Below are positions 2,379 through 53,500 of a DNA stretch of 64,000 nt, in pieces (position 1 is the first letter of the stretch; each line of letters opens with the position of its first letter). The translations under genes and the position numbers were made by a program. The DNA is from Octopus vulgaris (lineage: Eukaryota), in assembly GCA_951406725.2 (NCBI GenBank), contig OX597836.1, positions 15,190,001 through 15,254,000 of the forward strand. Direction: 5' to 3'. The notes beneath the pieces were generated by a model, which saw only the letters and a list, made by a program, of their open reading frames with translations, did no database searches and was not told where the DNA came from.

Positions 2379-4868
2379 TTTTAGGAATTATATATAAAAA
2401 AAATTGTGTACTGTAGAAGTGTAACCAATTTATTGCAGATGAATTTTAACACTAAAATCTTATAAGGGCCCCCAGGGCCATATGGGCCTTGGTTAAGAAC
2501 CATTGCTCTAAGTAAATGAAATAGCTGTGATTCATCACCATTGGTTAACCCATTAACTGCCAAATTATTTTATTCATATTTTTTAGCTTTGCCAGGTGTC
2601 TTAAGAGTTAAAATAATATACAGTAGTTAAATTTTCATCATATGTGAATTATTTTGGAAATTACGATAAATTTTTTGAAAAGTCCCAAATGGGGATTACT
2701 GAAAAAAAGCATATTTATCCTTTTCAATTCAATTGCAATAATAAACATTTTAGTTTTTTTTTTTTTTTTTGAAACTATAGTATCAAATGTGAATGTTTAT
2801 GAAATATCAATGAATGATATAGATGGGAAATGCTAGAAAGAAAAAAAAATGGTTTTCGAAACAGTATTTTTGTAGTTCAAAAATTGCAATTTATGACATA
2901 AAATGTCCTCTAGAATTAGCCAGAGCTAATAATGACAAACTTTAATTACTAAATATTATTATTAAACAGAACTCTGCAAATGCAATGTACATAAGCAATT
3001 CACTTTAAATACAATGAATAATCAGCAGAGAGACTGTTTTCAGCAGATCCCCAAATGGGGATCATGGCAAGCAATGGATTAAAGTCCACCTTCCATGCTG
3101 CTATGAGTTGGAAGGTTTGACAGGAACCAGCCAGGTATGAGCCTGCACGAAACCTCTGTCTGTTTTGGCGCAGATTTTACAGCTTCTATGCCTTCCTAAC
3201 ACCAACTATCCGGCAGAGTGGACAGAGTGCTTTTTACATGGCACAAGCACGGGTGGGGTCAATTTTTTTTGTTTTTTTACAACCAGATGCCCTTCCAATT
3301 GCCAACCACTTTACAGTGTGGACTGACTTGTAAAACAAAGATCCCTTGAGAGGAGAGGGGGCATTGGATGAGATGATCTTGTGTCAGATGATGAAAGGTT
3401 TGAGTGATGCAGAGGCAGGAACAGGTGTCTTGCTGTAGAGGAGGTACATGGTTACTCAGCTGCAAGTTCTACTCAGAGCGTACCTTTAACTAAAGGTCCA
3501 CTCAATAAGAGCATGCTTTTGACTACACTACTCTAAAGCTCCTCTCACTCCACTCAGCACACACTTTCAACACATTACTGCACACCAAAGCTTCACTCAC
3601 TGGAGGATATCTTCAACTCTTACACCAAAATATAAAAAAATAACTAAGAAATACTTAATTCCTTCCTATAAATGTTTTATTCATCAACTTTTATATTTAA
3701 AAGAAAGAAAGAAATATAATCCTCTTGTGATAATGGAGTTTTATTAATACCCAATAAATAGAGCTAAATATCTATATTTATAAAATATACGCTATAAATA
3801 GTTTGTGTGTGTGTGTGTATATATATATGCATACATACACACGCATTTATACACAGTACAGTTTGTGTATGTATGTATATCTATATATCTACACAGACAT
3901 ACACAAACTATAATTTAGTATGTATGGCTATATACATCATACACTTACAGTACAGTTTGTGTGAGTATATATGCACATACATAAATATAGTTTGTATGTA
4001 TATATGTACATACACTTACATTATAGTTTATATAAGTACATATATAAATGCACGATCATACAGTACAATTTGTGCATGAGTGTGTGTGTATACATATGCT
4101 TATTCTGTTATATATACATACATAAGCACACACACACGTGCTTTATTCCAGTCCTCTGCAGAAATAAAAATTAAATATTTCTAGTTGCCATGAGAGAAAG
4201 TTACGAAAGAATCGCCCCAGAAAGTGTGTTCAAAAAACTAGTTGCATTAAAAAGGCAGCTAATATTGGGATAGTAATCCCTGGATTAATCTAGTAGCAGC
4301 TAATCTATTTATGGTTGACCATCTATCTAATGAAGGATTCAAACTTTGACCAGCTTCATAGATAAGGAACTTCAAATCAGAAGAATCTGCTCTATTTGTC
4401 AGCAACCAACCACAATGAAGCCACACAGAACAGCAAGACTATACCTGCACCAACAAGGTATTGTGGATCAAAAATCAGGAGGGGGTCAAGAAAACTTTCG
4501 AAAACCATAAAACTAACAAGTAATTCAAGCATTTGTAGCTTTTTCAAAGTTTCCTAACAAGGGACAAGTGTGTGAGCATAGAGCATAAATTAAATTTTCT
4601 AAGACAAGGCATGGGCAACCTTTTACAAGAAGCAGACCGCATAAGACATGGTTCATAATAAGGCACTACTAAAAATAATTGAAGGTAAGTTTTCACTAAG
4701 CGTGCCATTCAGAAAGTCTGTTGGGCCACAGGTTGCTCTAAGGGGTGGCAGATGGTCAAATACAAATTATAACATTTGCACAACCAGTGACCAGTGAAAG
4801 AAGTAGAATTCCTTCACCCCTGCCTGAGAACTGGGAGAGAGGAAGGAATATCTCAACATGGACCATTG

Positions 4869-5965: not shown

Positions 5966-7277
5966 CTGGAAAAGAATAAAACCAGTTCCATTATGAGTGT
6001 ACAAACATTAGAGACAGGACATGTGGAATTTGTGAAAAACTTAAAACACAAGGTCACACATTAAGGACACGAGATACTGAGTCAGCCTTAGTATAAAGCT
6101 ATTTTTGACTTTGATACAGAACCACAAATTTAGGAACAAGTCGCGGTACAGGGCTTTTACTAACTCTGGCACACAACAACATAGTTGTAGCAAAGGAAGA
6201 ATACAGTCATTGACAAAATCAACCTCTCAGCCCCAGTACATAGCTTGTGATAATTGATACACAGCCACACATTTTGTAGTAAAAATGGAATATAGTCATC
6301 TATTGAATCAGTCTCTCAGCCCTAGTATAGGGCTATTGCTAACATCTGGATTAAGATTCTTCATGTAAATTAGAATGCAGGCAGTGTTTCCTTAAACATT
6401 TAGCATTGTAAAATAAGTAAAATTTAAAAGGTAAAATAAATGAAAAACTGGCTTTAAAAGGAAGCATACCAGCCACTTCATACGGTGGGTGTACTGGGTA
6501 TTTTCGTGTGCCACAAGCACTATTGAGATCCCTCTGCAACTCGCAAGACTATGAATCCAAGGGAGGTGGGGGGGAGCTTTATACGAGGGGATGAGGGGGT
6601 CAAAGTATGACAGAAGGAAAGGGAGCAGAACAAGTTCTTGTAGAAGAGCTGCAGGGTTAGTCACATTTAGTAGGGGAGAGAGAGAGAACGATCAGTTGCT
6701 GCTCCAAAGACACAGGTAGTAAAGATGAGGTATCCAGGTAGACTCCTCAGGATACGAGATGAGTAGAAGAAGTGGAGGGGGCGTTATTCTACACAACTAA
6801 ACCTTACATGATAACTGAAAGAGCAGCAGATAAAAAGCCTTGCAGTGTTTAGTTCAAATCCTACTTAGGTAGGTTCTATTCTTTTCGCTCTTCTTGGGTC
6901 AATCACTTTACTTATCTGTGGCCTTGTGCTAATAATATATTTCTCTACTACCCACAAGGGGCTAAACACAGAGGGGACAAACAAGGACAGACAAATGGAT
7001 TAAGTCAATTATATCAACTCCAGTGCGTAACTGGTACTTAATTTATCGACCCCGAAAGGATGAAAGGCAAAGTCGACCTCGGCGGAATTTGAACTCAGAA
7101 CGTAACGGCAGACGAAATACGGCTACACATTTCACCCGGCGTGCTAACGTTTCTGCCAGCTCGCCACCCATCATTCAAATAGACAAATCATAAATGCTAC
7201 TGCATTTTTAGTCAAAAGGTTTACTTTAACAGAAGACAGAATTATTTAAAAAAACAACAACAAAAAACAAAACTTAC

Positions 7278-10649: not shown

Positions 10650-10942
10650 CTGGAAAATAGAAAAGTAAAAAAGAAAATTGAGATGTCAAACAGATCTAAA
10701 AAAAACCAAAAAAGGGGAGACTATCTTGACATAGTCAACATTTGAAGGAAAAGAAAACCTTTCATTACCTGTTGCTTGTTTCTATTTAAAAGTTTAATTA
10801 ACATAAACGACAACCAAGACTTTAACCCTTCCACTACTTTTAACCCAAGTGCTCTACCAACTTTGCCAGTCTTCTAATTTTATAATAATGGTATCAAACT
10901 TTGGCTGAAGTCTAGCAAGATTAGGGGAAGAAGTATTTAGGG

Positions 10943-11248
10943 GTGCCAGTGACACATAATAAGGACCCATGCCAGTGACACACAAAAGGTGCCCGTGCCG
11001 GTGACACACAAAAGGTGCCCGTGCCGGTGACACACAAAAGGTGCCCGTGCCGGTGACACACAAAAGGTGCCCATGCCAGTGACACACAAAAGGTGCCCGT
11101 GCCGGTGACAGATAAAAGGTACCTGTGCCGGTGACACGTAAAAGGTACCCGTGCCAGTGACACGTAAAAGGTACCCATTCCGGTGACACGTAAAAGGTAA
11201 CCGTGCCAGTGACACATAAAAGGTACCCATGCAAGTGATACGTAAAAA
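10943..11248 (+). repeat. 26-bp minisatellite, about 11 units (gcccgtgccggtgacacacaaaaggt)
   Basis: Direct tandem units at the 5' end of a (GAT)n-tail element; explains the repetitive ORFs at 10854-11352. Confidence 0.9.
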
Positions 11249-12428
11249 GCACCCACTACACTCTTAGAGTGGTTGGCATTAGGAAAGGCATCCAGCTGTA
11301 GAAACCAAGGCAAAATCAGATGAGCCTGGTACGGCTTACCAGTTTCTGTCAAACCGTCAAACCCATGCCAGAATGGGAAACGGACACTAAATGATGACGA
11401 TGAAGCAAGTCAATTACACTGACACTGGTGTGCTCATTTTATCGATCTTGAAAGGATGAAAGGCTAAGTCAGACATTAGCAGAATTTGAACTCATAATGC
11501 AAAGTGCCAGAAGAAATTCCACTGAGCATTTTGTCCGACGAACTCACAGATCTGCCAGTTCACTGCTTTCCCCACTTTTATAACAAGAGATTGTTTAACC
11601 CTTTTAGCATTTAAAATGGTCATAGCCAGAATAACGATCCAAAATAACCTCTTTAGAAGGGGTTCTCAACCACTTTTTTATCAGTGGTATATGGTGGTTG
11701 TTGTATTGAATATGCTGCCACACTCAAAGCCACCAAATTTCAAGCAGGGGCATAACAAAAGTTTTCCATTAAGATTTGTGGTTAAATTAATGAGTAAGAG
11801 TAATATTTATAATGAATCTGACATTTCTGACAGGTGTGCAGCGCACACCTGGAATATATGCCCTTGTTTTTTTATCTATGGACCCCTTTGATTATTATTT
11901 TATTCTGGTGGACCCCTATAACCATTTGATGATTAGAAAATAGTTTTATAGAAACTAAGGTGGCGAGCTGGCAAGATCGTTAGCACACCGGGTGAAATGC
12001 TTAGTGGTATTTCGTCTGCTGTTACATTCTGAGTTCAAATTCCGCCGAGGTCGACTTTGCCTTTCATCCTTTCGGGGTCGATTAAATAAGTACCAGTTAG
12101 ACACTGGGATCGATATAATCGACTTAATCCATTTGTCTGTCCTTGTTTGTCCCCTCTGTGTTTAGCCCCTTGTGGGTAGTAAAGAAATAGGTATTTCGCC
12201 TGCCGCTACGTTCTGAGTTCAAATTTCGCCGAGGTCAACTTTGCCTTTCATCCTTTCGGGGTCGATTAAATAAGTACCAGTTACGCACTGGGATCGATAT
12301 AATCGACTTAATCTGTTTGTCTGTCCTTGTTTGTCCCCTCTGTGTTTAGCCCCTTGTGAGCAATAAAGAAATATATAAACTAATTTTATAGAAACTTCTT
12401 TTAAAATTCCTATTTTGCTTTCCACACA

Positions 12429-25086: not shown

Positions 25087-25654
25087 CAAAAAGGATATAA
25101 GGTGCTCAAGCCAGAATTTAGAAAATTTTTCGAAGTTTCTGAAACAATTAGGGAATATGTCCGTAGGGTGAAATTATTTTTTAAAAAATGTTAGGCTTAT
25201 TTACTTCGATTTCAAATCCCGCTTAGAGGTCAACTTAGCCTTCATCAGTCAAGCAGCTGTCTTAAAGTACGCGATACACCAGTTATGGGGAAACTGCAAC
25301 TTGCAGGCGATTTAATGGCTCGCTAACGACAAATTACTTCTTTTTTTTCCTTTATTTATTTTATTTTTTCAAAAGTTTAGTTCGCGTGATGAGCCATGTC
25401 TCAAGTTTCTCGAAAATAGTTGCCCAGGTGCGGTGAGATGCTATGTGCAAGGGACGGAATTCCGGTATTGCTAACGCAGTCATTTCCCTTGAATTATGTC
25501 TAAACTTTCGGAATTACGGAGATGTACTCGCATAGCAAGTGATTTGATCTGAGATCGTGTGCTGAAACGAAAACAATTGCAGCGTGGAAGGTGTTTGTAA
25601 GCCATTTAAGAAACACACAAAAGCCGTTCGATTCACTTCAACATTTAAGTTTAA

Positions 25655-25705
25655 TTTGTCAAAATATTTTCGTCGCTTTGAGACCGCGACCTGTTCACTG
25701 ACAAA
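25655..25705 (-). ncRNA. Third copy of the G3-C8 hammerhead-like motif
   Basis: Reverse complement reads TTTGTCA-GTGAACA-gGTCGC(ggtctcaaa)GCGAC-GAA-AATATT-T-TGACAAA, followed by a truncated inverted copy at 25721-25742. Confidence 0.68.
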
Positions 25706-26055
25706 AATGCAGCACGGATTTTTGTCAGTGAACAGGTCGCGGATCCAATTAAGATTTTGTGGGGTCCACACAATAAAATATTAAATTGGGCGTCCACAAT
25801 AGTATTTTAAGGGCCCCTGAAAAAATTCTGGTTTAGATGTATGTATTGGTATGTATTGCAAGAAACAGCCGGGTTTCTTTCTCTAACATTTTACATAGTT
25901 CAACCTGCACAAGTTAACGTGTGAAAAGCAAAATAGAAATTTTGAAAGAAGGATCTATAAAACTAATTTTTTAAACATTGAAAGGCTCTAGGGTCCACCA
26001 AAATAAAATAGAAATCAAAGGGGTCTATAGGTAAAAATAGTTGAGAAACACTGGT

Positions 26056-27852: not shown

Positions 27853-28249
27853 CAAATACACATATATTGTTTTAGCATTTTATAAACCATGTTTTGTTTT
27901 CAAACTATGATGGAATGTCAGAAATGGCAGAGTGCCATTTAACGAGGGTTCTGGAATTTTAGTCCATTTTTAAGTTTTCATGTATTGGCCTGAGCCAGTG
28001 CCATATAAAGGCATGGGCACACAAGGCAGTTGTCCAGGGGCCTCATGGGTCAGTGGTGGTGGTTGTGGTGATGGAGGATGTGGGGGTTCTCAGTTCTAAT
28101 CCATATATGCCCTGCTTGCAGTCAACAAACAAATATTACAGGATCCACGATCGGAGACTGGTACTTCTTTATGCAGCTGCCCTCATCCACATGCATCACA
28201 TGACCATACCAGCACAGTCTTCTCTCCTGCACACAACATCTGCCTCCTC

Positions 28250-28800
28250 AACAAGGACAGACAAACGGATTAAGTCGATTACATCGACCCCAGTGCGTAA
28301 CTGGTACTTAATTTATCGACCCCGAAAGGATGAAAGGCAAAATCGACCTCGACGGAAATTGAACTCAGAACGTAGCAGCAGACAAAATACATATTTCTTT
28401 ACTACCCACAAGGGGCTAAACACAGTAGGGACAAACAAGGACAGACAAACGGATTAAGTCGATTACATGGACCCCAGTGCGTAACTGGTATTTAATTTAT
28501 TGACCCCGAAAGGATGAAAGGCAAAGTCGACCTCGACGGAAATTGAACTCAGAACGTAGCGGCAGACAAAATACATATTTCTTTACTACCCACAAGGGGC
28601 TAAACACAGTAGGGACAAACAAGGACAGACAAACGGATTAAGTCGATTACATCGACCCTAGTGCGTAACTGGTACTTAATTTATTGACCCCGAAAGGATG
28701 AAAGGCAAAGTCGACCTCGGCGGAAATTGAACTCAGAACGTAACGGCAGACGAAATACGGCTACGCATTTTGTCCGGCGTGCTAACGGTTCTGCCAGCTC
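28250..28800 (-). mobile_element. SINE family B, tandem trimer (other arrays 11958-12370, 45817-46500, 47333-47746, 52800-53315; singles 6940-7168, 15324-15625, 17461-17692, 29862-30078, 34466-34697, 39167-39400, 48279-48507, 51127-51358, 62665-62894)
   Basis: Head ggcggcgagctggcagaa with B-box-like gagttcaaattcc; about 184-nt tandem unit. Confidence 0.85.
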
Positions 28801-29159
28801 TCTTAAATCATTTACACTCTGATGTGCATGCACACTGATGTTACGTATTAATTTGTAAATAACCAGTTGGTAATAATAGTGTTGATATGATTGACTAAAA
28901 CCATTGAAAGCAATGCTCCAGTATGGCTGTAGTCCAGTGAACGAAATAAGTTAATGAGTGAAATTATAGAAAAAGAAAGATTTGTACCAAAACCATTTAC
29001 AGTTGGCTGGTTAAATGTTAGGGGCTGAGGAAGTTACCTCCCCTACGTTGTTTACTGTGATATTATGAACCTACATAACGTGTGTGTGTGTGTGTCTGTG
29101 TGTGCGTGCTGTACTATGAAAATACTGTATATGTATATATATACATGTGTGTGTGTGTT

Positions 29160-36935: not shown

Positions 36936-38343
36936 TATCCAGTAAAATCTTTTTTGCTAGTTTATTTTGTTTCTCTGTCTTCTCGTCTGGTGCGATATGA
37001 ACATTTAAGGTGGTTTTAGGATCAGGGTTTTGACTGCTACTTCAGTATGGTGGTATCTCTCAGATACCCTAATTTATAGTTTTATATATATATATATATC
37101 TGTGGCAAAGGCTGACTTGGAAACAAGGGCATGCAGTCTATGATGCAGGCCAATCATCAAGACAAAGTGAGTGGGACAGTGCACTCTTACTCTCTCCACC
37201 CTTAAACAATTTTTGTTCTTCCCCCACCACCTCTGTCTGTGAAAGTGATGTGAAATAATTTTAATGTGAGAAAATACACTTCTACAAACCAGCCACACTT
37301 TGGGCTTGATGCCTCTCTCCACTGGACTTGATGGTCCTCCATTAGTCTGCCATGATGACTTTTATTGGTTACGAGAGAAATCAGAGAAAATAATAGAACC
37401 TACATATAAAGAGCTACCGTAAATCCTCGAGTATAATCTGCACTTTTTTCCCAAAATTTAAAGGGCAAAATCCTTAGTGCGTACCAACATGCCGAGCAGG
37501 AACACGAGGTCTCACTCAACAACATAGAAGTTAAAATCTTGTCCACACATAGAACAGACGCAACGCTTAGACAAATTACAGAAACTACACACATAATAGA
37601 AGATAAACCTAGCCTGAATAGGAAACTGGGATGGAACACTAGCACACACCACAGCATATGACAGAAGTAGATACCCATAAACTGGTAACAATATAAACAA
37701 AACTAAAAACAATAAAATACACAGATAGATAAACAAATGGAAGTAAATAACTATATACATTAAAAATAATAATAATAATAATAAAAAAATAATAATAAGT
37801 AGGTGTAAACACATGAACAAAATAAAAATAAACAAAAACAAATTACACGAACATATATAAACAGGAGATACAAATATTACAGACACTCCCCCCCACACAC
37901 ACACACACACTAACTAAACATAGACACACATAGAGGTATACACATGCGCAAATGGAGACACATACAATAGGAATACAAAATGGTTGACCGTCAGTAAGGA
38001 GAGACACACAAATAAGAAGGAAGAAAGCAAAGGACCACTGATGAGGTCACAGGCGTGTGATGAAAGAACTTTGGCCGAAATAAGATTAAGATTAATGTAA
38101 AAAATAAATAACGCTGAAGCAAAATAACACTAAATATATAGTGTGTGTGTTTTTATTGGCTAAATTGGCACAATGACCATTCCTAAATACAACGATAAAA
38201 TATTACAGAGATGTACTTGCATAGCAAGTGATTTGATCTGAGATCGTGTGCTGAAACGAAAACAATTGCAACGTGGAAGGTGTTTGTAAGCCATTTAAGA
38301 AACACACAAAAGCCGTTCATTTCACTTCAACATTTAAGTTTAA

Positions 38344-38394
38344 TTTGTCAAAATATTTTCGTCGCTATAAGACCGCAACCTGTTCACTGACAAA
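38344..38394 (-). ncRNA. Inverted partner copy of the G3-C8 hammerhead-like motif
   Basis: Reverse complement reads TTTGTCA-GTGAACA-gGTTGC(ggtcttata)GCGAC-GAA-AATATT-T-TGACAAA. Confidence 0.65.
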
Positions 38395-38416
38395 AATCCG
38401 GGATGCAGCACGAATT

Positions 38417-38466
38417 TTTGTCAGTGAACAGGTCGCAGATTTTAGCGACGAAAATATTTTGACAAA
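38417..38466 (+). ncRNA. Minimal hammerhead-like ribozyme with G3-C8 core variant (GUGAACA)
   Basis: TTTGTCA-GTGAACA-gGTCGC(agatttta)GCGAC-GAA-AATATT-T-TGACAAA. Stem I 7 bp, stem II 5 bp, palindromic stem III. Confidence 0.7.
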
Positions 38467-40427
38467 TTAAACTATGTTGAAGTGAATCGAACGGCTTTTG
38501 TGTGTTTCTTAAATGGCTTACAAACACCTTCCAACGATAAAATATATATTCTTCAGCTCTGGATAATTGTGCAAAATATACCAGAATCAGTAATATAACA
38601 AACATGCAAATTGATTAAACACCCATTTCTCATCAAAATCTCTCCACTATGAGGAAAGCTTTAAGTTCTTTGAATAAGGAAGTCTTTGATCTTAGTTGCA
38701 CAGGGCAGTAAAAACATCAATACTTTAGAAGAAAAAATGTTGATAGCATGTTTGCTGGCTTAACATGAGTGGAAGGCAAACAGCAAAATTTCTACTTTCT
38801 CTCTCTTGACTCCCCACTCTTTTTATTTTGTCTCCCTTTTTCACCTTCCTTCTCCAAGAGAATAATAGATTATGAAGAAAATAACCCTTCTCTTTTTCTT
38901 AATTATGATTGAAAGCAAATAGAAAAAAATTCTGCTTCCTTCTGCCTTTCTCTCATTGACTTCCCACTCTTTTTCATTCTTTTTCCTGCTCCCTGCTTGA
39001 AGGGAAAAGAAAAGCAATTAATCCTTTGCTTTTTCTTTCCTTGCTAAGCAAACAGGATCTTTTTCTACTTACCCTTCATAAATAATATGGATTGCTGATA
39101 ATTCATACTAAGAACTAAAGGTATGGGAAATATGAGGATGGTAAAAATTATCCATAATTATCCATAAGGCGGTGAGCTGGCAGAAACGTTAGCACACTGG
39201 GCGAAATGCTTAGCGGTATTTCGTCTGCCGTTACGTTCTGAGTTCAAATTCCGCCGAGGTCGACTTTGCTTTTCATCCTTTCGGGGTCGATAAATTAAGT
39301 ACCAGTTACGCACTGGAGTTAATGTAATCGACTTAATACCTATGTCTGTCCTGGTTTGTACCCTCTGTGTTTAGCCCCTTGTGGGTAATAAAGAAATAGG
39401 TAAAAATTATTCATAATTAATTTTATATCACACAAAAATTATTTACCCTGGAATAAAAGTAAGGCAGGCATTGCATACATACACCCTTCACCCCTGATAT
39501 ATGCATGTGTGTGTGTTTGTAATTAATAATATCAGGGTGATAAAGACTTTAGAAATTTTTACTACCAGTGGCCTAGCATATAGAAAAGTTAGTCAATAGG
39601 CTATATATTATTCATATAAAATACAGTGTACATTTAAACACATTAAGAGGTTTCCATCATAGGAATCCTTTATGCTAGAAAGAACAGCTAAAGTCCAAAC
39701 CACTAATTAGGGATAAATTCTTGAAGGGAATGAAAAATAAAAACATTTAATATCTCTTTCCTGGACCATGGTTTCTGACTTATTTTAGTAAATAAAATTA
39801 TTTCCATATATATTATATCATGATGATGATGATATATATATATAAATATATCATTATATTTATATATATTATATCATAATTGTAATACCATATTATAATA
39901 TAATAACTCTAATATATATTTAACCCTATTAGCATTCTGTAGGAAATTACTACTTATATCATTAAGTAATTAAATGAAATTAAACTCAGCAAAAATGTTA
40001 TATCATTATTGTTGATTATTATTTAATGACAATAATCACAAATATCATCAGTCCAGCATCAAAAAGGTTAATATTATTTCGACTGATTTTGCAAATGTAA
40101 CTTTAAATAATGAGCATTCCTACACATGTAGCAAGCTTAATGTCTCATTAAGTTATATTTATAAATTATCTAACCACCCTCAATCTATAATTAGGAATTT
40201 AGTTGAGAAGATATGCTTGAGAATTTCTAACGAACTAGCAAAACAAGTCATATTTTCAATGAAACCTTACATTATATATATGTGTGTGTGTGTATGTGTG
40301 TGTATATATATATTACAGGGTAAAAGTTTTTCAATTTTCTCCTGGTTTACGGTATTAATGTTATTTTGCGGTTATAGCTTTTGGCTGTTATTGTGGGTGA
40401 ATGGCCTATTATGGCCGTTCCTTGATT

Positions 40428-42619: not shown

Positions 42620-43002
42620 GGTGTGAGAGGATGGTTAAGTAATAGTTAATTTAGATAGGATACAAAATAGAGAGTGAGGCGGAGGAAAGAAAATAGATGT
42701 AAGATATGTAGGGATATTGAATTTGTAGATCCATTTTTTAGGCAGAATAGTATATATTTAAGATTCCAATAACTTATGAATAAAATCCAACAGAATTTAA
42801 AATGGGTCGACCGCTCGAAACGTTAAACCCTCCTTCTTCCCTTCCTTCCTGAGCGTCCAATAATACTATATTTGTTCCACGTCCTCGCATTGTTGCGTTT
42901 TCTCTTTGTGTTTTCATGTTTGGATTAACTATGACCTCATGTGTACCGTTGGCGATTTTTTTTTCCTCTGTCTTCCCTTCTCTGGATCTTTCCTTCTCCT
43001 AT

Positions 43003-43037
43003 GTTTCCGCCGAAGAGCTCTGCTCGAAACGTTAAAC
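43003..43037 (+). ncRNA. Minimal Penelope-type hammerhead motif (core mutated to CCGCCGA)
   Basis: GTTT-CCGCCGA-aGAGC(tct)GCTC-GAA-ACGT-T-AAAC. The 3' half is repeated at 42811-42828. Confidence 0.6.
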
Positions 43038-46000
43038 CCTCCTTCTTTCCTTAGCATCTAATAATACTATATTTGTTCCAAGTCCTCGCATTGTTGTGTT
43101 TTTTTGTGCTTTCTTGTTTGGATTAACTTTATATATATATATATATATACACACATATATGAGTGTATGTATGAGTAAATGTTATGTACACTGTGTGTAC
43201 CTATGATTTTCTTATATGGGAATTTTTCTCTCTTTCTCTGGACACACACAAATACACATTGATGTGGATTAAAGATAATTAAAATTCTTATAAACAAGGA
43301 AAAAACATTTAGAAATATGTGATATCAGAATTCTTCCAAAATTATATATTTGACCTTTAACCTTCAGCCATTGACATGGGTGGGGTATTTTTCCTTTTTT
43401 TTTGCTTTTTTTTAAAATTTTTTCTTTCATCATCTTTGTGTGATTCATTGAATTACTGGCAGCTTCAGAACTGGTGTGTCCCTTAGGACTGAGACCACTC
43501 CTTTGGAAGCAATAGGGGGAGCTATAAGACATTTTCATTTCCTCTCTCTCATAAACATGCACACATGTCACAATCATATTCCTTCAGCCTTCAACCACTT
43601 TTGTCCCTCACTTCAGCATACAAGCACCTCCACTTAACTCACCCACTCACTCACCTCCATCTCCATTAACACCATCTTCAACCACAACATGTATCAGATC
43701 CCATCTGCCTCAATCCCCCACCACCACTACAAACCCTCTTCTACTCACACCCTTCCACCTGTTGCTCAGTTGAACCCAAAGTATCCTTCCTCACCCACTC
43801 CTATATTCTAACCAGTCAATGAGTGCATATGTGTATGTGTATACAAATATTCTTTTACTTGATTCAGATATTTCACTGAGGCCATACTGGAGCACTTCCC
43901 TGAAGAATTTTAGTCAAAGAAATTGACCCCATTACTTTTTTTACTTTTTTTATTTTTTAAGCCTGCTATTTATTATATCAATCTCTTTAACTGAATCACT
44001 AAGTTGCAGGGACATAAACACAGACACAAAGACACACATACATAGATAAATTATAGATATATAATTGATATAGGATAAAATTTTTTCGGGAAAAAATTTT
44101 TATCAATGGCCAGCATATCAAAAAATGCCTTTAAAGGTAAAATTTATACATAATTTACAAGATAAGGGCCTTATCTGCCCTTATCTTGTAAATTATATAT
44201 ATATTATATTAATATTAGGGAAGTTATTTCCGAGTTCACAGGGGAGAGAAGTTCAATTTTGTGGTAGTAAATTGAGTTACTCACTGTATTATATACATAT
44301 ATATAGATAGGTTTAAGAGACAGAATCACCCTCAAGCAACTCAATCATCATTGAATGACATTATCCACAATAGGTACATATAGGACTAAATATTAAAATT
44401 TACCAAAATCAATACCTACAATTCTTATTACAAATTATCAAAATTAATACCTTCAATTCTTATTTCAAATCATATACTTTACTACACGTGTTTCATGACA
44501 ACATATTCTTCGATATTGCTGAAATAGAATGTCTCTAAATACAACACCATATTAAAACGATTATATGTATGTGTATATATATGTATGTGTGTGTGTATGT
44601 TTGTGTGTCTGTGTTTGTCCCCCTAGCATTGCTTGACAACCAATGCTGGTGTGTTTATGTCCCCGTCACTTAGCGGTTCGGCAAAAGAGACCGATAGAAT
44701 AAGTACTGGGCTTACAAAGAATAAGTCCCGGGGTCGATTTGCTCGACTAAAGGTGGTGCTCCAGCATGGCCGCAGTCAAATGACTGAAACAATTAAAAGA
44801 GTAAAGAGTATATATATATAAAATACAAAAAGGGGACAAAAACACAAAACATCCAGACAGGTGATACAAAAAAGGGACAACAAAACATCCAGACAGACGA
44901 TACAAGGAAAACAAGGACGGATCGTTCGGAGTTTTCTTTCCTCAGTCGATTTCCAGATTATCTTTGCAATTTTGGCTGGTTAATATATATATGTATACAC
45001 ACACAAACACACACACACACACACATGTATGTCCGTACACATGCTTAATATATTTACTTTCACTTTTAAATAAGAACTGGGTTTACAAAGAGATTTGTTT
45101 GTTTCTATTTGGCAGTTCAATATATGTATGAAAAAAAGAGGTAGAATTTATTCAAATTTTTGGAATTATAAAACAAAAGTTGTAGAGGAAGAATAAAGCT
45201 GCAAATAATAATAATAATAATAAAATAAATAAATAAACCACAAAAAAATATTTTTTTCATGTTAGTTCAAATAATACTGGAGATGACTGAATGGGGAAAA
45301 GGAAAAAAAACAAAACAAGTTTATTTCACAACCTAACATATGTATATATTTACACACACACACACACACACCAATACATATTCTGCACAAAAGAACCAAA
45401 CTTAAACAACAAACTTTGAAGTGAAAGGTAGGTTGAGAAGCCTATATAGGTAGATGGATGATAGAGGGTGGCAAGCTACAGGAGTTAGGTTCCACTCCCA
45501 CCCGGCTCCTCCCCTGTCTCATTCACCCAGTTATCCTTCTATTCCTGCATCACATTCCATCTGCTTCTTATTGCTTTTACTCTGTGGCATTTCTCATTCT
45601 GGTATCATTTTTCTCTTTCATTTATTTCTTATTTTACTGGGGGTTTTTTTTTTTTGTTTTGTTTTGGCATGTTTTTTTTTTTTTTTGCTTTCTTTTACTT
45701 CCTGTATTGTGAAATTCAGAGATTCCCTCTTGGCTGCCTGCTGTGTGAAGTAGACATTGACAAACAAACACAGATAACACAACAACTAACTATAGCTGTG
45801 TAGGCTTTGTAACTGTAGGTATTTCATCTGTCCTATGTTCTGAGTTCAAATTCCACTGAGGTTGACTTTGCCTTTCATCCTTTCAGGGTCAATTAAATAA
45901 GTACCAGTTATGCACTTGGGTTGATATAATCAACTTAGTCAGTTTGTCTGTCCTTGTTTGTCCCTTCTGTGTTTAGCCCTTTGTGGGTAGTAAAGAAATA

Positions 46001-48587
46001 GGTATTTTGTCTGCCGCTACGTTCTGAGTTCAAATTCCACTGAGGTCGACTTTGCCTTTCATCCTTTCAGGGTTGATTAAATTGTACCAGTTATGCACTG
46101 AGGTCAATATAATCGACTTAGTCGTTTGTCTGTCCTTGTTTGTCCCTTCTATGTTTAGCCCGTTGTGGGTAGTAAAGAAATAGGTCTTTTCCTTTTGATG
46201 GACGGAATTTTCTAGTTAACTAAAAAATTTGAAACTTCGTATACTGGTAGAATGTGTCAAAAGAAAACATTATTGTAAACAAAATTGTAATTTGTAAGTT
46301 TAACATCATTTAATTCTACGAATTTTAACCATTTTGTCTGCCATTACGTTTTGAGTTCAAATTCCACCGAGGTCAACTTTGCCTTTCATCCTTTCAGGGT
46401 CAATTAAATAAGTACCAGTTACGCACTGAGGTCGAATAATCAACTTAATCTGTTTGTATGTCCTTTCTGTGTTTAGCCCCATGTGGGTAGTAAAGAAATA
46501 GGTTTCAGGGTCAGGAATAAAAGAAGAATCAGATGTAGTGTGCAAGAAAGAAGACTTCAAATGATATGAACATATGATGTGTATGGTTGAGGAATTGCTG
46601 CATAAAGAATTACTAATTACTTATCCCTTTCGTTACCATATTTCTGTTGAAATTCATTGCCTTTCACCACCATCATCATCATTTAACATCCATTGTCCAT
46701 GCTGGCATGGGTTGGACAGTTTGACCAGAGCTGCTACATTCTGAGTTAAAAGAATTCTGCTGCTACGTTCTGCGTTCAAATTCCGCCAAGGTCAACTTTG
46801 CCTTCCATCCTTTCGGGGTCGATTTAATAAGTACCAGTTACACACTGAGATCGATATAATCGACTTAATCCGTTTGTCTGTCCTTGCTTGTCCCCTCTAT
46901 GTTTAGCTCCTTGTGGGCAATAAAGGAATAAGTTTGACCAGGGCTGATAAGCTGAGTGGCTGCACCAGACTCCAGTCTAATTTGGCATGGTTTCTACAGC
47001 TGGATGTCCTTCCTAATGCCAACCACTCCAAGAGTGTAATGGATGATTTTTTGCGCCACTGGCACCGGTGCCAGTTGCATGACTATAGTATCTACTGAGA
47101 CTATGATTTCACTTGGCTTGATGGGTCTTCTACTCAAGTACAGCATATTGCCAAAGGTCTTGGTTGTTTGTCATTGCCTCATGAGGCCCAATGCTCAAAA
47201 GGTGCTTTTTTACATACCTCCAGCACGGGTGCTAGTTACACAATCCTGGCATCGCCCACATTGCCTCCACGAGACTCAATTTTGAAAATAATGACTAATT
47301 TAGTAAAATAGCTTTGTCATTGTTATTAAGCTGGTGGCGAGCTGGCAGAAATGTTAGCACGCAGGGTGAAATGCTTAGCGGTATTTCGTCTGCCATTACG
47401 TTCTGAGTTCAAATTCCACCAAGGTCGACTTTGCCTTTCATCCTTTCGGGGTCGAAAAATAAGGTACCAGTTTTACACTAGGGTTGATGTAATCGACTTA
47501 ATCCCTTTGTCTGTCCTTGTTTGTCCCCCCTATGTTTAGCCCCTTGTGGGCAGTAAAGAAATAGGTATTTTGTCTGTCGTTACATTCCAAGTTCAAATTC
47601 TGCCGAGGTCGACTTTGCCTTTCATCCTTTCGGGGTCGAAAAATAAGGTACCAGTTTCACACTGGGGTCGATGTAATCGACTTAATCCCTTTGTCTGTCC
47701 TTGTTTGTCCCCACTATGTTTAGCCCCTTGTGGGCAGTAAAGAAATATATTAAGCTGGTGTTTGGAACATAAATTAATGTTAAATTTGATCGAAGGTATT
47801 GTACTCAAGAGGAGCTGTCCGCCACATCAGAAGTGTTAAGGCCGCACCCTCTCATGCAGAGGGTTGGCCTGCAAGAGTCCTGCATCAGTGTCACATAAAA
47901 AGCGCTCATGCCAGTGCCATGTTAAGGGCACCCAGCACACACTGTAAAGTGGTTGGCATTAGGAAGGGCATCCAGCCATAGAAAACCAAGCCAAATCAGG
48001 CTGGAGCTTGATGCAGCTTCCCAGCTTACCAGTTCTGGTCTAACTGTCCAACTCATGCCAGCATGGAAAACCCTAAAGGATGATGATGATGATGATGATG
48101 ATCACTGTAATCATTTAGCATTTAGATTACTTTGTCAAATGTAATGTTTGTAGGCGTAGGAGTGGCTGTGTGGTAAGTAGCTTGCTTACCAACCACATGG
48201 TTCCGGGTTCAGTCCCACTGTGTGGCACCTTGGGCAAGTGTCTACTACTGAGAAGGGAATATGTTGAATAAATTTAACCGGCGAGCTGGCAGAATCGTTA
48301 GCACCCCGGGCGAAATGCGTAGCCGTATTTCGTCTGTCGTTACGTTCCGAGTTGAAATTCCGCCGAGGTCGACTTTGCCTTTCATCCTTTCGGGGTCGAT
48401 AAATTAAGAACCAGTTACGCACTGGGGTCGATGTAATCGACTTAATCCGTTTGTCTGTCCTTGTTTGTCCCCTCTGTGTTTAGCCCCTTGTGGGTAGTAA
48501 AGAAATAAATATGTTGAATAAAATCATAATTAACTGGTTCTCCTGTATTTTCTTTTACCCAAAAGCCGGAACTTTTCAGCACCTCCT

Positions 48588-51529: not shown

Positions 51530-53500
51530 AAAGCAATTAAGGATATGAAAATAGGGAAAGTCCCTGGCCCATCAGGAATCTCCACAGTGATGTTTGAAAT
51601 ATCTGGCAAAGTGAGATTTGGCCTCGTTACATGTATAGTTAATCCGGTTGTCCATGAGGAAGTCATACCCAACAACTGGTATAGCAGTCAACTGCTACAA
51701 AGGTAAAGGTGACACCTTATACAGAAATAATTACAAAGGTATCAAATTGCTGAACCACACCATGAAAGTTACAGAAAGGATCATAGCTCGATTAATTAGG
51801 AAGAGAGTTAGCCCACATGAGATGCAGTTTGATTTTATGCCAAGAACAAGCACTACCGATGCTGTCTTCCTGGTGAGGCAACTGTAGGAGAAGTATTTAA
51901 CCAAAAATGGATCTCTGTACTTGGCTTTTATTGACATTGAGAAAGCCTTTGACAGGATTTCCCACTCCCTTAACCCTTTTGTTACCAGCCCAGCTGAAAC
52001 CAGCTCTAGCTCTGAATACAAATGTTTTGTTTTCATAAGTTTTGAATTAAAATCTTCCATCAAACCTTAGTCACAATTTATGTTCCTAACACTAGCTTAA
52101 CCCTTTTGTTACTGTATTTATTTTGAGATGTTCTGTGTTTCTTTCAATTACTTTAAATATAACAAAATATTTAGTAAAATAACTTAGTTATCATTAAGCT
52201 AGTGTTAGGAACATAAATTGTGACTAAGGTTTGGTAGAAGATTTTAATTCAAAACTTATGTAAACAAGACATTTGTACTCAGAGCCAGAGCCAGTTTCAG
52301 CCGGGTTGGTAACGAAAGGGTTAATGATAACTAAGTTATTTTACAAAATTCTTTGTTATATTTAAAGTAATTGAAAGAAACACAGAGCATCTCAAAATAA
52401 ATACAGTAATGAAAGGGTTAACTAGTGAGAAATGTGGAATCTAGATAGGTGAGTTGTTGGTGAGAGCTATACAAGCCATGTACAAGGATGCGGTCAGTAA
52501 GGTGAAAGTTAGCAATGAATATAATGAATTTAGTGTACAGCAATGAATTTAGTGTTCACTAAGGACCAGTTCTTAGGCTCCTCTTGTTTAACACAGTCCT
52601 CCAGACCACAACTGGTATGCCCTTGGGTGCTCCTCAGTGCCAGTGCCCCGCAACCATTTGTCACTTGATGTACACTTATATTCTTTACAAAATCCGATGG
52701 CACACCCAAACAGAAAATACAATTAAAAGTATAAGGGGGAAAAATTATATCCAGGTTACACTGCGGCACACCTAGCATTGTCCCATGTGCTGTGGCATAC
52801 CTATTTCTTTACTACCCACAAGGGGCTAAACACAGAGGGGGACAAACAAGGACAGACAAATGGATTAAGTTGATTACATCGACCCCAGTGCGTAACTGGT
52901 ACTGATTTAATCGACCCCGAAAGGATGAAAGACAAAGTCGACCTCGGCGGAATTTGAACTCAGAACATAACGGCAGACGAAATACCTATTTCTTTACTAC
53001 CCACAAGGGGCTAAACATAGAGGGGGCAAACAAGGACAGACAAACGGATTAAGTCAATAACATCGACCCCAGTGCATAACTGGTACTTATTTAATTGACC
53101 CCGAAAGGATGAAAGGCAAAGTCGACCTCGGCGGAATTTGAACTCAGAACATAACGGCAGACGAAATACCTATTTCTTTACTACCCACAAGGGCTAAACA
53201 CAGAGGGGACAAACAAGGACAGACAAATGGATTAAGTCGATTACATCGACCCCAGTGCATAACTGGTACTTATTTAATCGACCCCGAAAGGATGAAAGGC
53301 AAAGTCGACCTTGGCCCAGTTGCAGAGCACTACTCTATGCTGCTGACTTTGTTCTTATTGCTGAATCACTAACAGAATGAGAGAAGAAATTTCAGGTGTG
53401 GAAGCAGGGTCTGGAATCAAAGGGTCTTAGAGTAAATTTAGCAAATACCAAAGTCCTAGTGAGTAGGAAGATGGTCCTGTTCTATATGTAGAAAAGGTGT
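51530..53500 (+). pseudogene. Decayed RTE-clade LINE reverse transcriptase, interrupted by nested MITEs and a SINE array
   Basis: KGKGD..NYKGIKLLNHTMKV..QFDFMP..STTDAVF..AFIDIEKAFD (51660-51960), then LYAADFVLIAES..GLRVNLANTKVL (about 53333-53465), with stops and frameshifts. Confidence 0.85.
51970..52421. mobile_element. TTAA MITE with an inverted copy of itself nested at an internal TTAA (52097-52324)
   Basis: The outer element is split at actagc-TTAA-tgataac; the inner copy is flanked by TTAA on both sides. Confidence 0.8.

Follow-up and report, generated by a model that had tools for sequence, protein, structure and literature searches.

Minimal type I hammerhead ribozymes have been described in the pLTRs of metazoan Penelope-like retroelements (PLEs) by Cervera and de la Peña (2014; PMC4209133), where they carry an extra base between positions 9 and 10.1 (a known trait of the PLE minimal hammerhead), a G10.1-C11.1 pair and palindromic positions 15.2-16.2 with no stable stem III, occur as opposite-strand pairs, include a U3-A8 covariant and are reported to be poor cutters in vitro. 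Inverted arms are the usual pattern of PLE insertion (PMC4209133; Craig et al., 10.1101/2021.04.23.441226), and a CX2-5CxxC linker is assigned to the Neptune and Nematis clades (10.1101/2021.04.23.441226). For the Anolis Poseidon PLE (PAc), Frangieh et al. (2024; PMC11167929) place the hammerhead at the pLTR-ORF junction and report that it needs protein, is not required for insertion and leaves no RNA-seq ends, and that in vitro there are two internal initiation sites, with extension of both nicked strands. The engineered exchange C3G/G8C partly rescues cleavage of the PAc hammerhead (PMC11167929), regains part of the rate lost in G8C (PMC8495972) and proved the sole rescue within the CUGA region when double mutants were scanned in full (PMC9901934); for G3-C8, G17 is described as more suitable than C17 (PMC3884650, data not shown there).

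We report a PLE family of Octopus vulgaris, here called family A, in which G3-C8 is the wild-type state. Its motif shares with the hammerheads of PMC4209133 the pLTR location, the extra base, G10.1-C11.1, the palindromic 15.2-16.2 positions, the lack of a stable stem III and the opposite-strand pairs, but G3 occurs in 0/56 of the representatives in their Fig. S3, and the extra base is G in family A against their consensus H. As in PAc (PMC11167929), the hammerhead lies at the pLTR-ORF junction, two ends fall inside the ORF start and the targets are AT-rich; unlike in PAc, the swap is the natural state, the whole motif precedes the ATG and the ORF has a Neptune/Nematis-type Cys linker. Perreault et al. 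(2011; PMC3088659) describe natural variants with a compensatory 3-8 change as well, although their U3-A8 amounts to two transitions and the G3-C8 of family A to two transversions.

The DNA analysed (the window) is a stretch of 64,000 nucleotides with the composition of AT-rich animal DNA, rich in simple repeats. Positions 38204-38533 are two PLE pLTR stubs facing each other, with a 14-bp duplication on both sides, and a second insertion of this kind lies elsewhere in the window. The features of family A are:

38190..38203, unstranded: target-site duplication, left copy, 14 bp, identical to 38532-38545
38204..38400, minus strand: left arm, a reversed pLTR stub with a long tail, 91-92% match to the pLTR and ORF start of locus L068
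38294-38292, minus strand: left-arm start codon, followed by about 30 codons of the PLE ORF start; the same ATG opens a long ORF in L084 and L068
38344..38394, minus strand: left-arm hammerhead motif, with G3 at 38387, C8 at 38382, the extra G at 38380, a T.G wobble in stem II and the predicted cut at 38351/38350
38402..38533, plus strand: right arm, a pLTR stub with a short end, start codon at 38513
38417..38466, plus strand: right-arm hammerhead motif, with stem I at 38417-23/38460-66, G3 at 38424, C8 at 38429, A9 at 38430, the extra G at 38431, stem II at 38432-36/38445-49, GAA at 38450-52, the palindrome at 38453-58 and U17 at 38459
38532..38545, unstranded: target-site duplication, right copy, 14 bp, its first two bases common to the element end
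25502..25744, unstranded: second head-to-head insertion of family A, with a complete motif on the minus strand (G3 at 25698) and the plus-strand arm cut off in loop II

The window thus holds three complete motifs (N3 at 38424 on the plus strand and at 38387 and 25698 on the minus strand), and the anatomy given in the earlier note applies to every one of them: a 7-bp stem I, the core GTGAACA, a 5-bp stem II, GAA, AATATT and T17, with a stem II loop that differs in all three and a predicted plus-arm cut at 38459/38460, where that note had placed it. The extra G between A9 and G10.1 (38431 on the right arm) is absent from its description. The lone stem II change, in the left arm, is indeed a T.G wobble, but it is also a C-to-T change at a CpG, so that neutral decay would produce it equally well. 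The motif has the PLE minimal type I set (U4, G5, A6, A9, G12, A13, A14, A15.1-U16.1, H17 and G10.1-C11.1), as well as stems I and II, the extra base between 9 and 10.1 and a palindromic stem III region; it does not match the published descriptor of C3-G8 (or U3-A8), and a Watson-Crick 3-8 pair is present. Published-style descriptors built on CUGANGA or UUGANAA would not match this core, as had been anticipated for CUGANGA. Rfam returned no hammerhead in the whole window at the gathering threshold, and with E values up to 10 in 37900-38700 gave only microRNA-hairpin and weak chance matches.

To place the motif, the right arm was used as query in its own genome, which gave 1,037 candidates, 40 of which were scored. 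Many of the scored matches are inverted pairs with variable centres, and longer stretches of family A lead to an ORF with RT and GIY-YIG upstream of the same sequence, which bears out the Penelope link proposed for the motif. One locus, L068, is a whole unit of motif, ATG, ORF, 3' UTR and second motif 4,261 nt later (motifs at 4742 and 9003), in which the pLTR stands on both sides of the ORF (a partial tandem), the start codon follows N3 by 92 nt, the ORF is broken by a stop and frameshifts, and the 3' UTR is about 1 kb with microsatellites. The window arms are therefore pLTR stubs that end inside the ORF start. The protein of family A has the patterns DKSG, DVVSLYP, QTKGGAIG, RYVDD, a CX3CX2C linker and YIGET; Pfam places GIY-YIG above cut-off and gives no RVT_1 match in family A (two relatives fall below cut-off only), the RT motifs being seen by pattern. 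The likeness to the Neptune/Nematis EN+ PLEs (10.1101/2021.04.23.441226) extends to the CX2-5CxxC linker, the C-terminal GIY-YIG, (TA)n-rich flanks and an inverted 5'-truncated copy with a one-sided tail, but the tail difference is about 60 nt in family A against the 30-40 bp quoted, and the clade likeness is by linker, not by tree. No match was found among solved structures and no relative in viral contigs, and a distant endonuclease query of the own genome gave no further PLE family. The possibility of a non-LTR retrozyme was discarded, as copies are solo, head-to-head or ORF-linked and not head-to-tail tandem non-coding repeats.

Exact 20-nt patterns were used for counting in the genome, and G3-C8 is found in 6,551/7,178 matches, with G3 and another base at 8 in 400 and another base at 3 in 227; these counts are lower bounds, because any further mismatch drops a copy, and the controls are 0 (reversed core pattern: 0). 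Similarly, a descriptor with positions 3, 8 and 9 free had 0 matches in 405 kb of shuffled loci. The claim of a multicopy hammerhead-type family therefore holds, with 6,551 exact copies of a natural G3-C8. Among the copies without C8, G8 looks over-represented by eye (about 40 of the first 100 listed out of 400), as a G3.G8 intermediate subfamily might produce, but the G8 loci that were fetched have assorted older-type flanks with no private shared change visible by eye. Invariance in three copies had been offered as a sign of selection, and here the larger sample is less favourable: in 220 arms of family A, the 3' half of the motif, by which the arms were not selected, has 1/22 variable sites versus 17/149 elsewhere (p 0.47) and is thus not significantly more conserved than its flanks; the lone change turns a stem I pair into a U.G wobble. 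In loop II 5/8 sites vary, against the same 17/149 (p 0.0015).

A search with the RT yielded a young sister family, family B, with 64% RT identity to family A and many intact frames of 1,312 aa, to which the nearest named protein, a hypothetical protein of Octopus vulgaris, is 98.9% identical. The window palindrome is itself inserted at the 3' end of a family B copy:

37481..38197, plus strand: truncated family B copy (ORF end, 3' UTR, pLTR and first codons), 82-85% identity to unit L070
38035..38074, plus strand: family B hammerhead with canonical C3-G8, with C3 at 38038, G8 at 38043, A9, the extra G, stem II, GAA, AGAACT and U17 at 38071

In this older copy the closing C11.1 has become T and A9 is kept. 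The family B pLTR (L070, G000:C17:6329500-6339400) has the architecture of that of family A with a C3-G8 core, a stem II where A-U replaces one G-C pair, and the near-palindromic AGAACT; the CX2-5CxxC linker between RT and EN is common to both families, and the long ends of A and B fall at a matching ORF codon. By eye, among the first 100 of 4,452 pattern matches for family B, 98 have C3-G8 and about 89, including copies with intact frames, have C for the conserved A9; C9 ahead of the extra G is likewise present in L241, a relative from a metagenome. When the 3' UTR/pLTR regions of A and B were compared with blastn, a single alignment under E 1 was obtained; it lies at the ORF start and leaves the motif unaligned, so the core letters that the two families share are not simply the result of recent descent. 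A GTGTGTTT motif immediately before the start codon is common to both families (L068:4811-4930, L070:2236-2360) and is predicted to pair across the AUG.

Thirteen metagenome loci were obtained and the 7 closest were re-scanned for the motif, which lies downstream of the endonuclease in 4/7 (three C3-G8, one U3-A8); 3/7 were without it, and at least two of those contigs have no clear pLTR. In one PLE relative with C3-G8, L240:4973, the stem III region by eye is TAGCTA, i.e. U15.1-A16.1. A scan of 1.07 Mb of fetched loci of the own genome with positions 3, 8 and 9 free gave six more families of minimal hammerheads (L103, L181, L057, L018, L109 and L168; four U3-A8 and two C3-G8), known from the motif alone, and several of them are also present as head-to-head pairs. 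With the positions left free, 3 pairs with 8 in 12/12 families, as happens in 27/200,000 permutations, a figure that overstates independence because the families are related; 3-8 mismatches are seen only among family A copies, many of which were fetched for that mismatch. Comparative support for the 3-8 pair thus appears good. A quick tree computed from our loci without named reference elements groups A with B (SH-aLRT 99) and surrounds this pair with C-G and U-A relatives; on this tree G3-C8 is derived, and the swap looks compensatory.

The remaining repeats of the window include a SINE-like repeat that is abundant, lies on both strands and contains internal tandem units of 184 bp, as well as a tandem array and a decayed relative of one of the six families above:

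6933-7165, 11959-12377, 28203-28802, 39157-39467, 47322-47751, 52798-53396 and others, both strands: copies of the SINE-like repeat
10892-11281: tandem array of a 26-bp unit, at least 11 registers
42963-43153: decayed L168-type relative

The genome contains 714 tight head-to-head pairs of family A. In the window pair, arm-versus-arm identity is 90% over 264 aligned columns and the arms are unequal, the left one being about 60 nt longer; one long and one short tail are found in 14/15 of the tight pairs (the first 15 of 714), in keeping with initiation at two internal sites followed by extension of both nicked strands. Junctions differ between copies and many cut into the motif. Arms often start at AGATGCAGC, about 20 nt before the core (window 38401-38412; L085-L219, L283-L342). 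In 13/21 cases the preceding base is G. A cap copied by reverse transcription at the start site may account for this, as may microhomology shared with the other arm. A branch-point, a pyrimidine tract and AG immediately upstream of the AGATGCAGC arm start resemble a splice acceptor; contigs of four presumed-RNA sequencing runs on L068 have no joint at this possible acceptor upstream of the motif and no point at which molecules start or stop, although contigs do not resolve such ends. Part of the window is contained in 20 rows of sequencing runs in 8 studies, none recorded as RNA.

Loop II types of different subfamilies can be seen on the two arms of one pair (window 38366-38374 versus 38437-38444; also L147, L004 and L011), and such mixing suggests two RNA templates per insertion. 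As a general rule this origin was rejected: different loop types are found in only 1/12 scorable tight pairs, with the window pair included among the exceptions, and most pairs have private variants common to both arms.

Folding was predicted for the arms alone and for the foldback. In the isolated right arm stems I and II fold (z -3.4; pair probabilities 0.88-0.99), and the isolated left arm folds no better than shuffles (z -1.2; pair probabilities 0.41-0.46). The RNA of the whole palindrome is one hairpin of -192 kcal/mol, and the probability of hammerhead stems I and II is 0.0 on both strands, in the whole RNA as in nascent RNA ending after stem I; with the 5' ends of the arms meeting in the centre, the complement of the sense motif is in every case transcribed first. 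The AAUAUU duplex of stem III contributes only -0.2 kcal/mol.

These data bear directly on what the locus is. The earlier note read the foldback as a functional inverted pair of ribozymes that cuts transcripts of either strand, and two near-complete motifs on opposite strands, in a genome with 714 such tight pairs, would be in line with this. That reading is nevertheless very improbable and largely refuted in silico: on both strands a single hairpin is predicted in place of the hammerhead stems, nascent RNA included, the junctions vary from copy to copy and often lie inside the motif, and the same inverted pairs are formed by other hammerhead families of the genome. We consider the palindrome itself an ordinary by-product of PLE insertion, predicted to be inert as a ribozyme. 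A MITE or foldback DNA transposon with a chance likeness to a hammerhead would explain the near-perfect inverted repeat, the target-site duplication and the lack of an Rfam match, but it can be dismissed almost entirely. The linkage to an ORF refutes it, the arms being derived from the pLTR and ORF start of an RT-EN element; moreover, the ends are asymmetric and the centres variable, relatives have the same motif at the same place, and Rfam likewise missed the canonical C3-G8 motif of family B in the same stretch.

A more serious question is whether the motif cuts at all. It could be a hammerhead descendant that no longer does so, its fold being kept for another job in the pLTR (candidates are binding of the element protein, pausing or translation control) or carried as a passenger of successful master copies. 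Copies derive from uncut RNA, and thousands of them span the cut site uncut. From 30 classified loci each, we estimate that 75 (52-94) copies begin at the predicted cut, 40 (16-78) at +1 (downstream) and 51 (31-72) at -4 (upstream), ranges that overlap; 100 start strings inspected by eye are evenly spread from -4 to 0, and the TGACAAA repeated within the motif itself accounts for 3/19 cut-site junctions. The genomic copies thus give no clear spike of truncation at the cut site: about 1% of copies end there, an excess that is at most twofold and unproven. The loss of cutting would also agree with the fixation of A9C in family B and C9 in L241, with a conservation of the motif within the family that is not above background, and with the report that hammerhead mutants of the anole PLE are without effect on insertion in vitro (PMC11167929). 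However, selection on an active fold predicts what is seen here: two transversions that together restore precisely the 3-8 tertiary pair, with U4, G5, A6, A9, G12, A13, A14, A15.1-U16.1 and G10.1-C11.1 kept where the flanks are unalignable. We therefore regard a motif without activity as unlikely, if far less so than the two readings above, and the hammerhead probably cuts RNA, likely weakly, in the full-length element. The laboratory rescues by C3G/G8C also speak for cutting, and family A has U17, not C17.

Our preferred explanation, to which we assign a probability of about 0.68, is that the locus is a PLE insertion of two pLTR stubs, whose minimal hammerhead changed from C3-G8 to G3-C8 in the lineage, is likely a weak cutter in full-length transcripts and is predicted to be unfolded in the palindrome. 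By analogy with the in vitro work on the anole PLE, the element protein would nick both strands of AT-rich DNA, reverse transcription would start at two internal sites in the ORF start, and the two cDNAs would run toward the RNA 5' end and be joined there, giving the foldback. Stem III may form only between two motifs, via the palindromic AAUAUU, or with the element protein, in which case cleavage following U17 would be expected to be slow and regulated. The RNA templates that gave rise to the genomic copies were mostly uncut.

Family A represents a real and abundant core variant, new within an established class of ribozymes and carried by a familiar kind of retroelement; its activity is putative. 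The largest survey of these motifs is reportedly that of Lünse 2017. In the literature covered, which does not extend to Lünse et al. 2017, subscription papers, figures and the supplements of Perreault 2011 and Frangieh 2024, any of which possibly holds one, we did not find a natural G3-C8, only U3-A8; the available text of the O. vulgaris repeat paper does not mention ribozymes. More tentatively, and at somewhat less than even odds, family A may be the first natural active G3-C8 hammerhead, one that crossed a two-transversion valley and then spread to >6,500 copies; taken with the A9C of family B, there would then be PLE hammerheads outside every published descriptor, the present census would be too low, and A9 would perhaps be dispensable when the extra G follows.

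The C3-G8 tertiary pair was established by means of engineered G3-C8 mutants, and a wild G3-C8 family would be its natural confirmation. Genome screens for hammerheads should leave positions 3, 8 and 9 free. Because family B thrives with C9 in most copies, the PLEs of this genome may amplify without an intact hammerhead core, and the two sisters, one with G3-C8 and A9 and the other with C3-G8 and C9, offer within one genome a ready pair for asking whether PLEs need hammerhead cutting.
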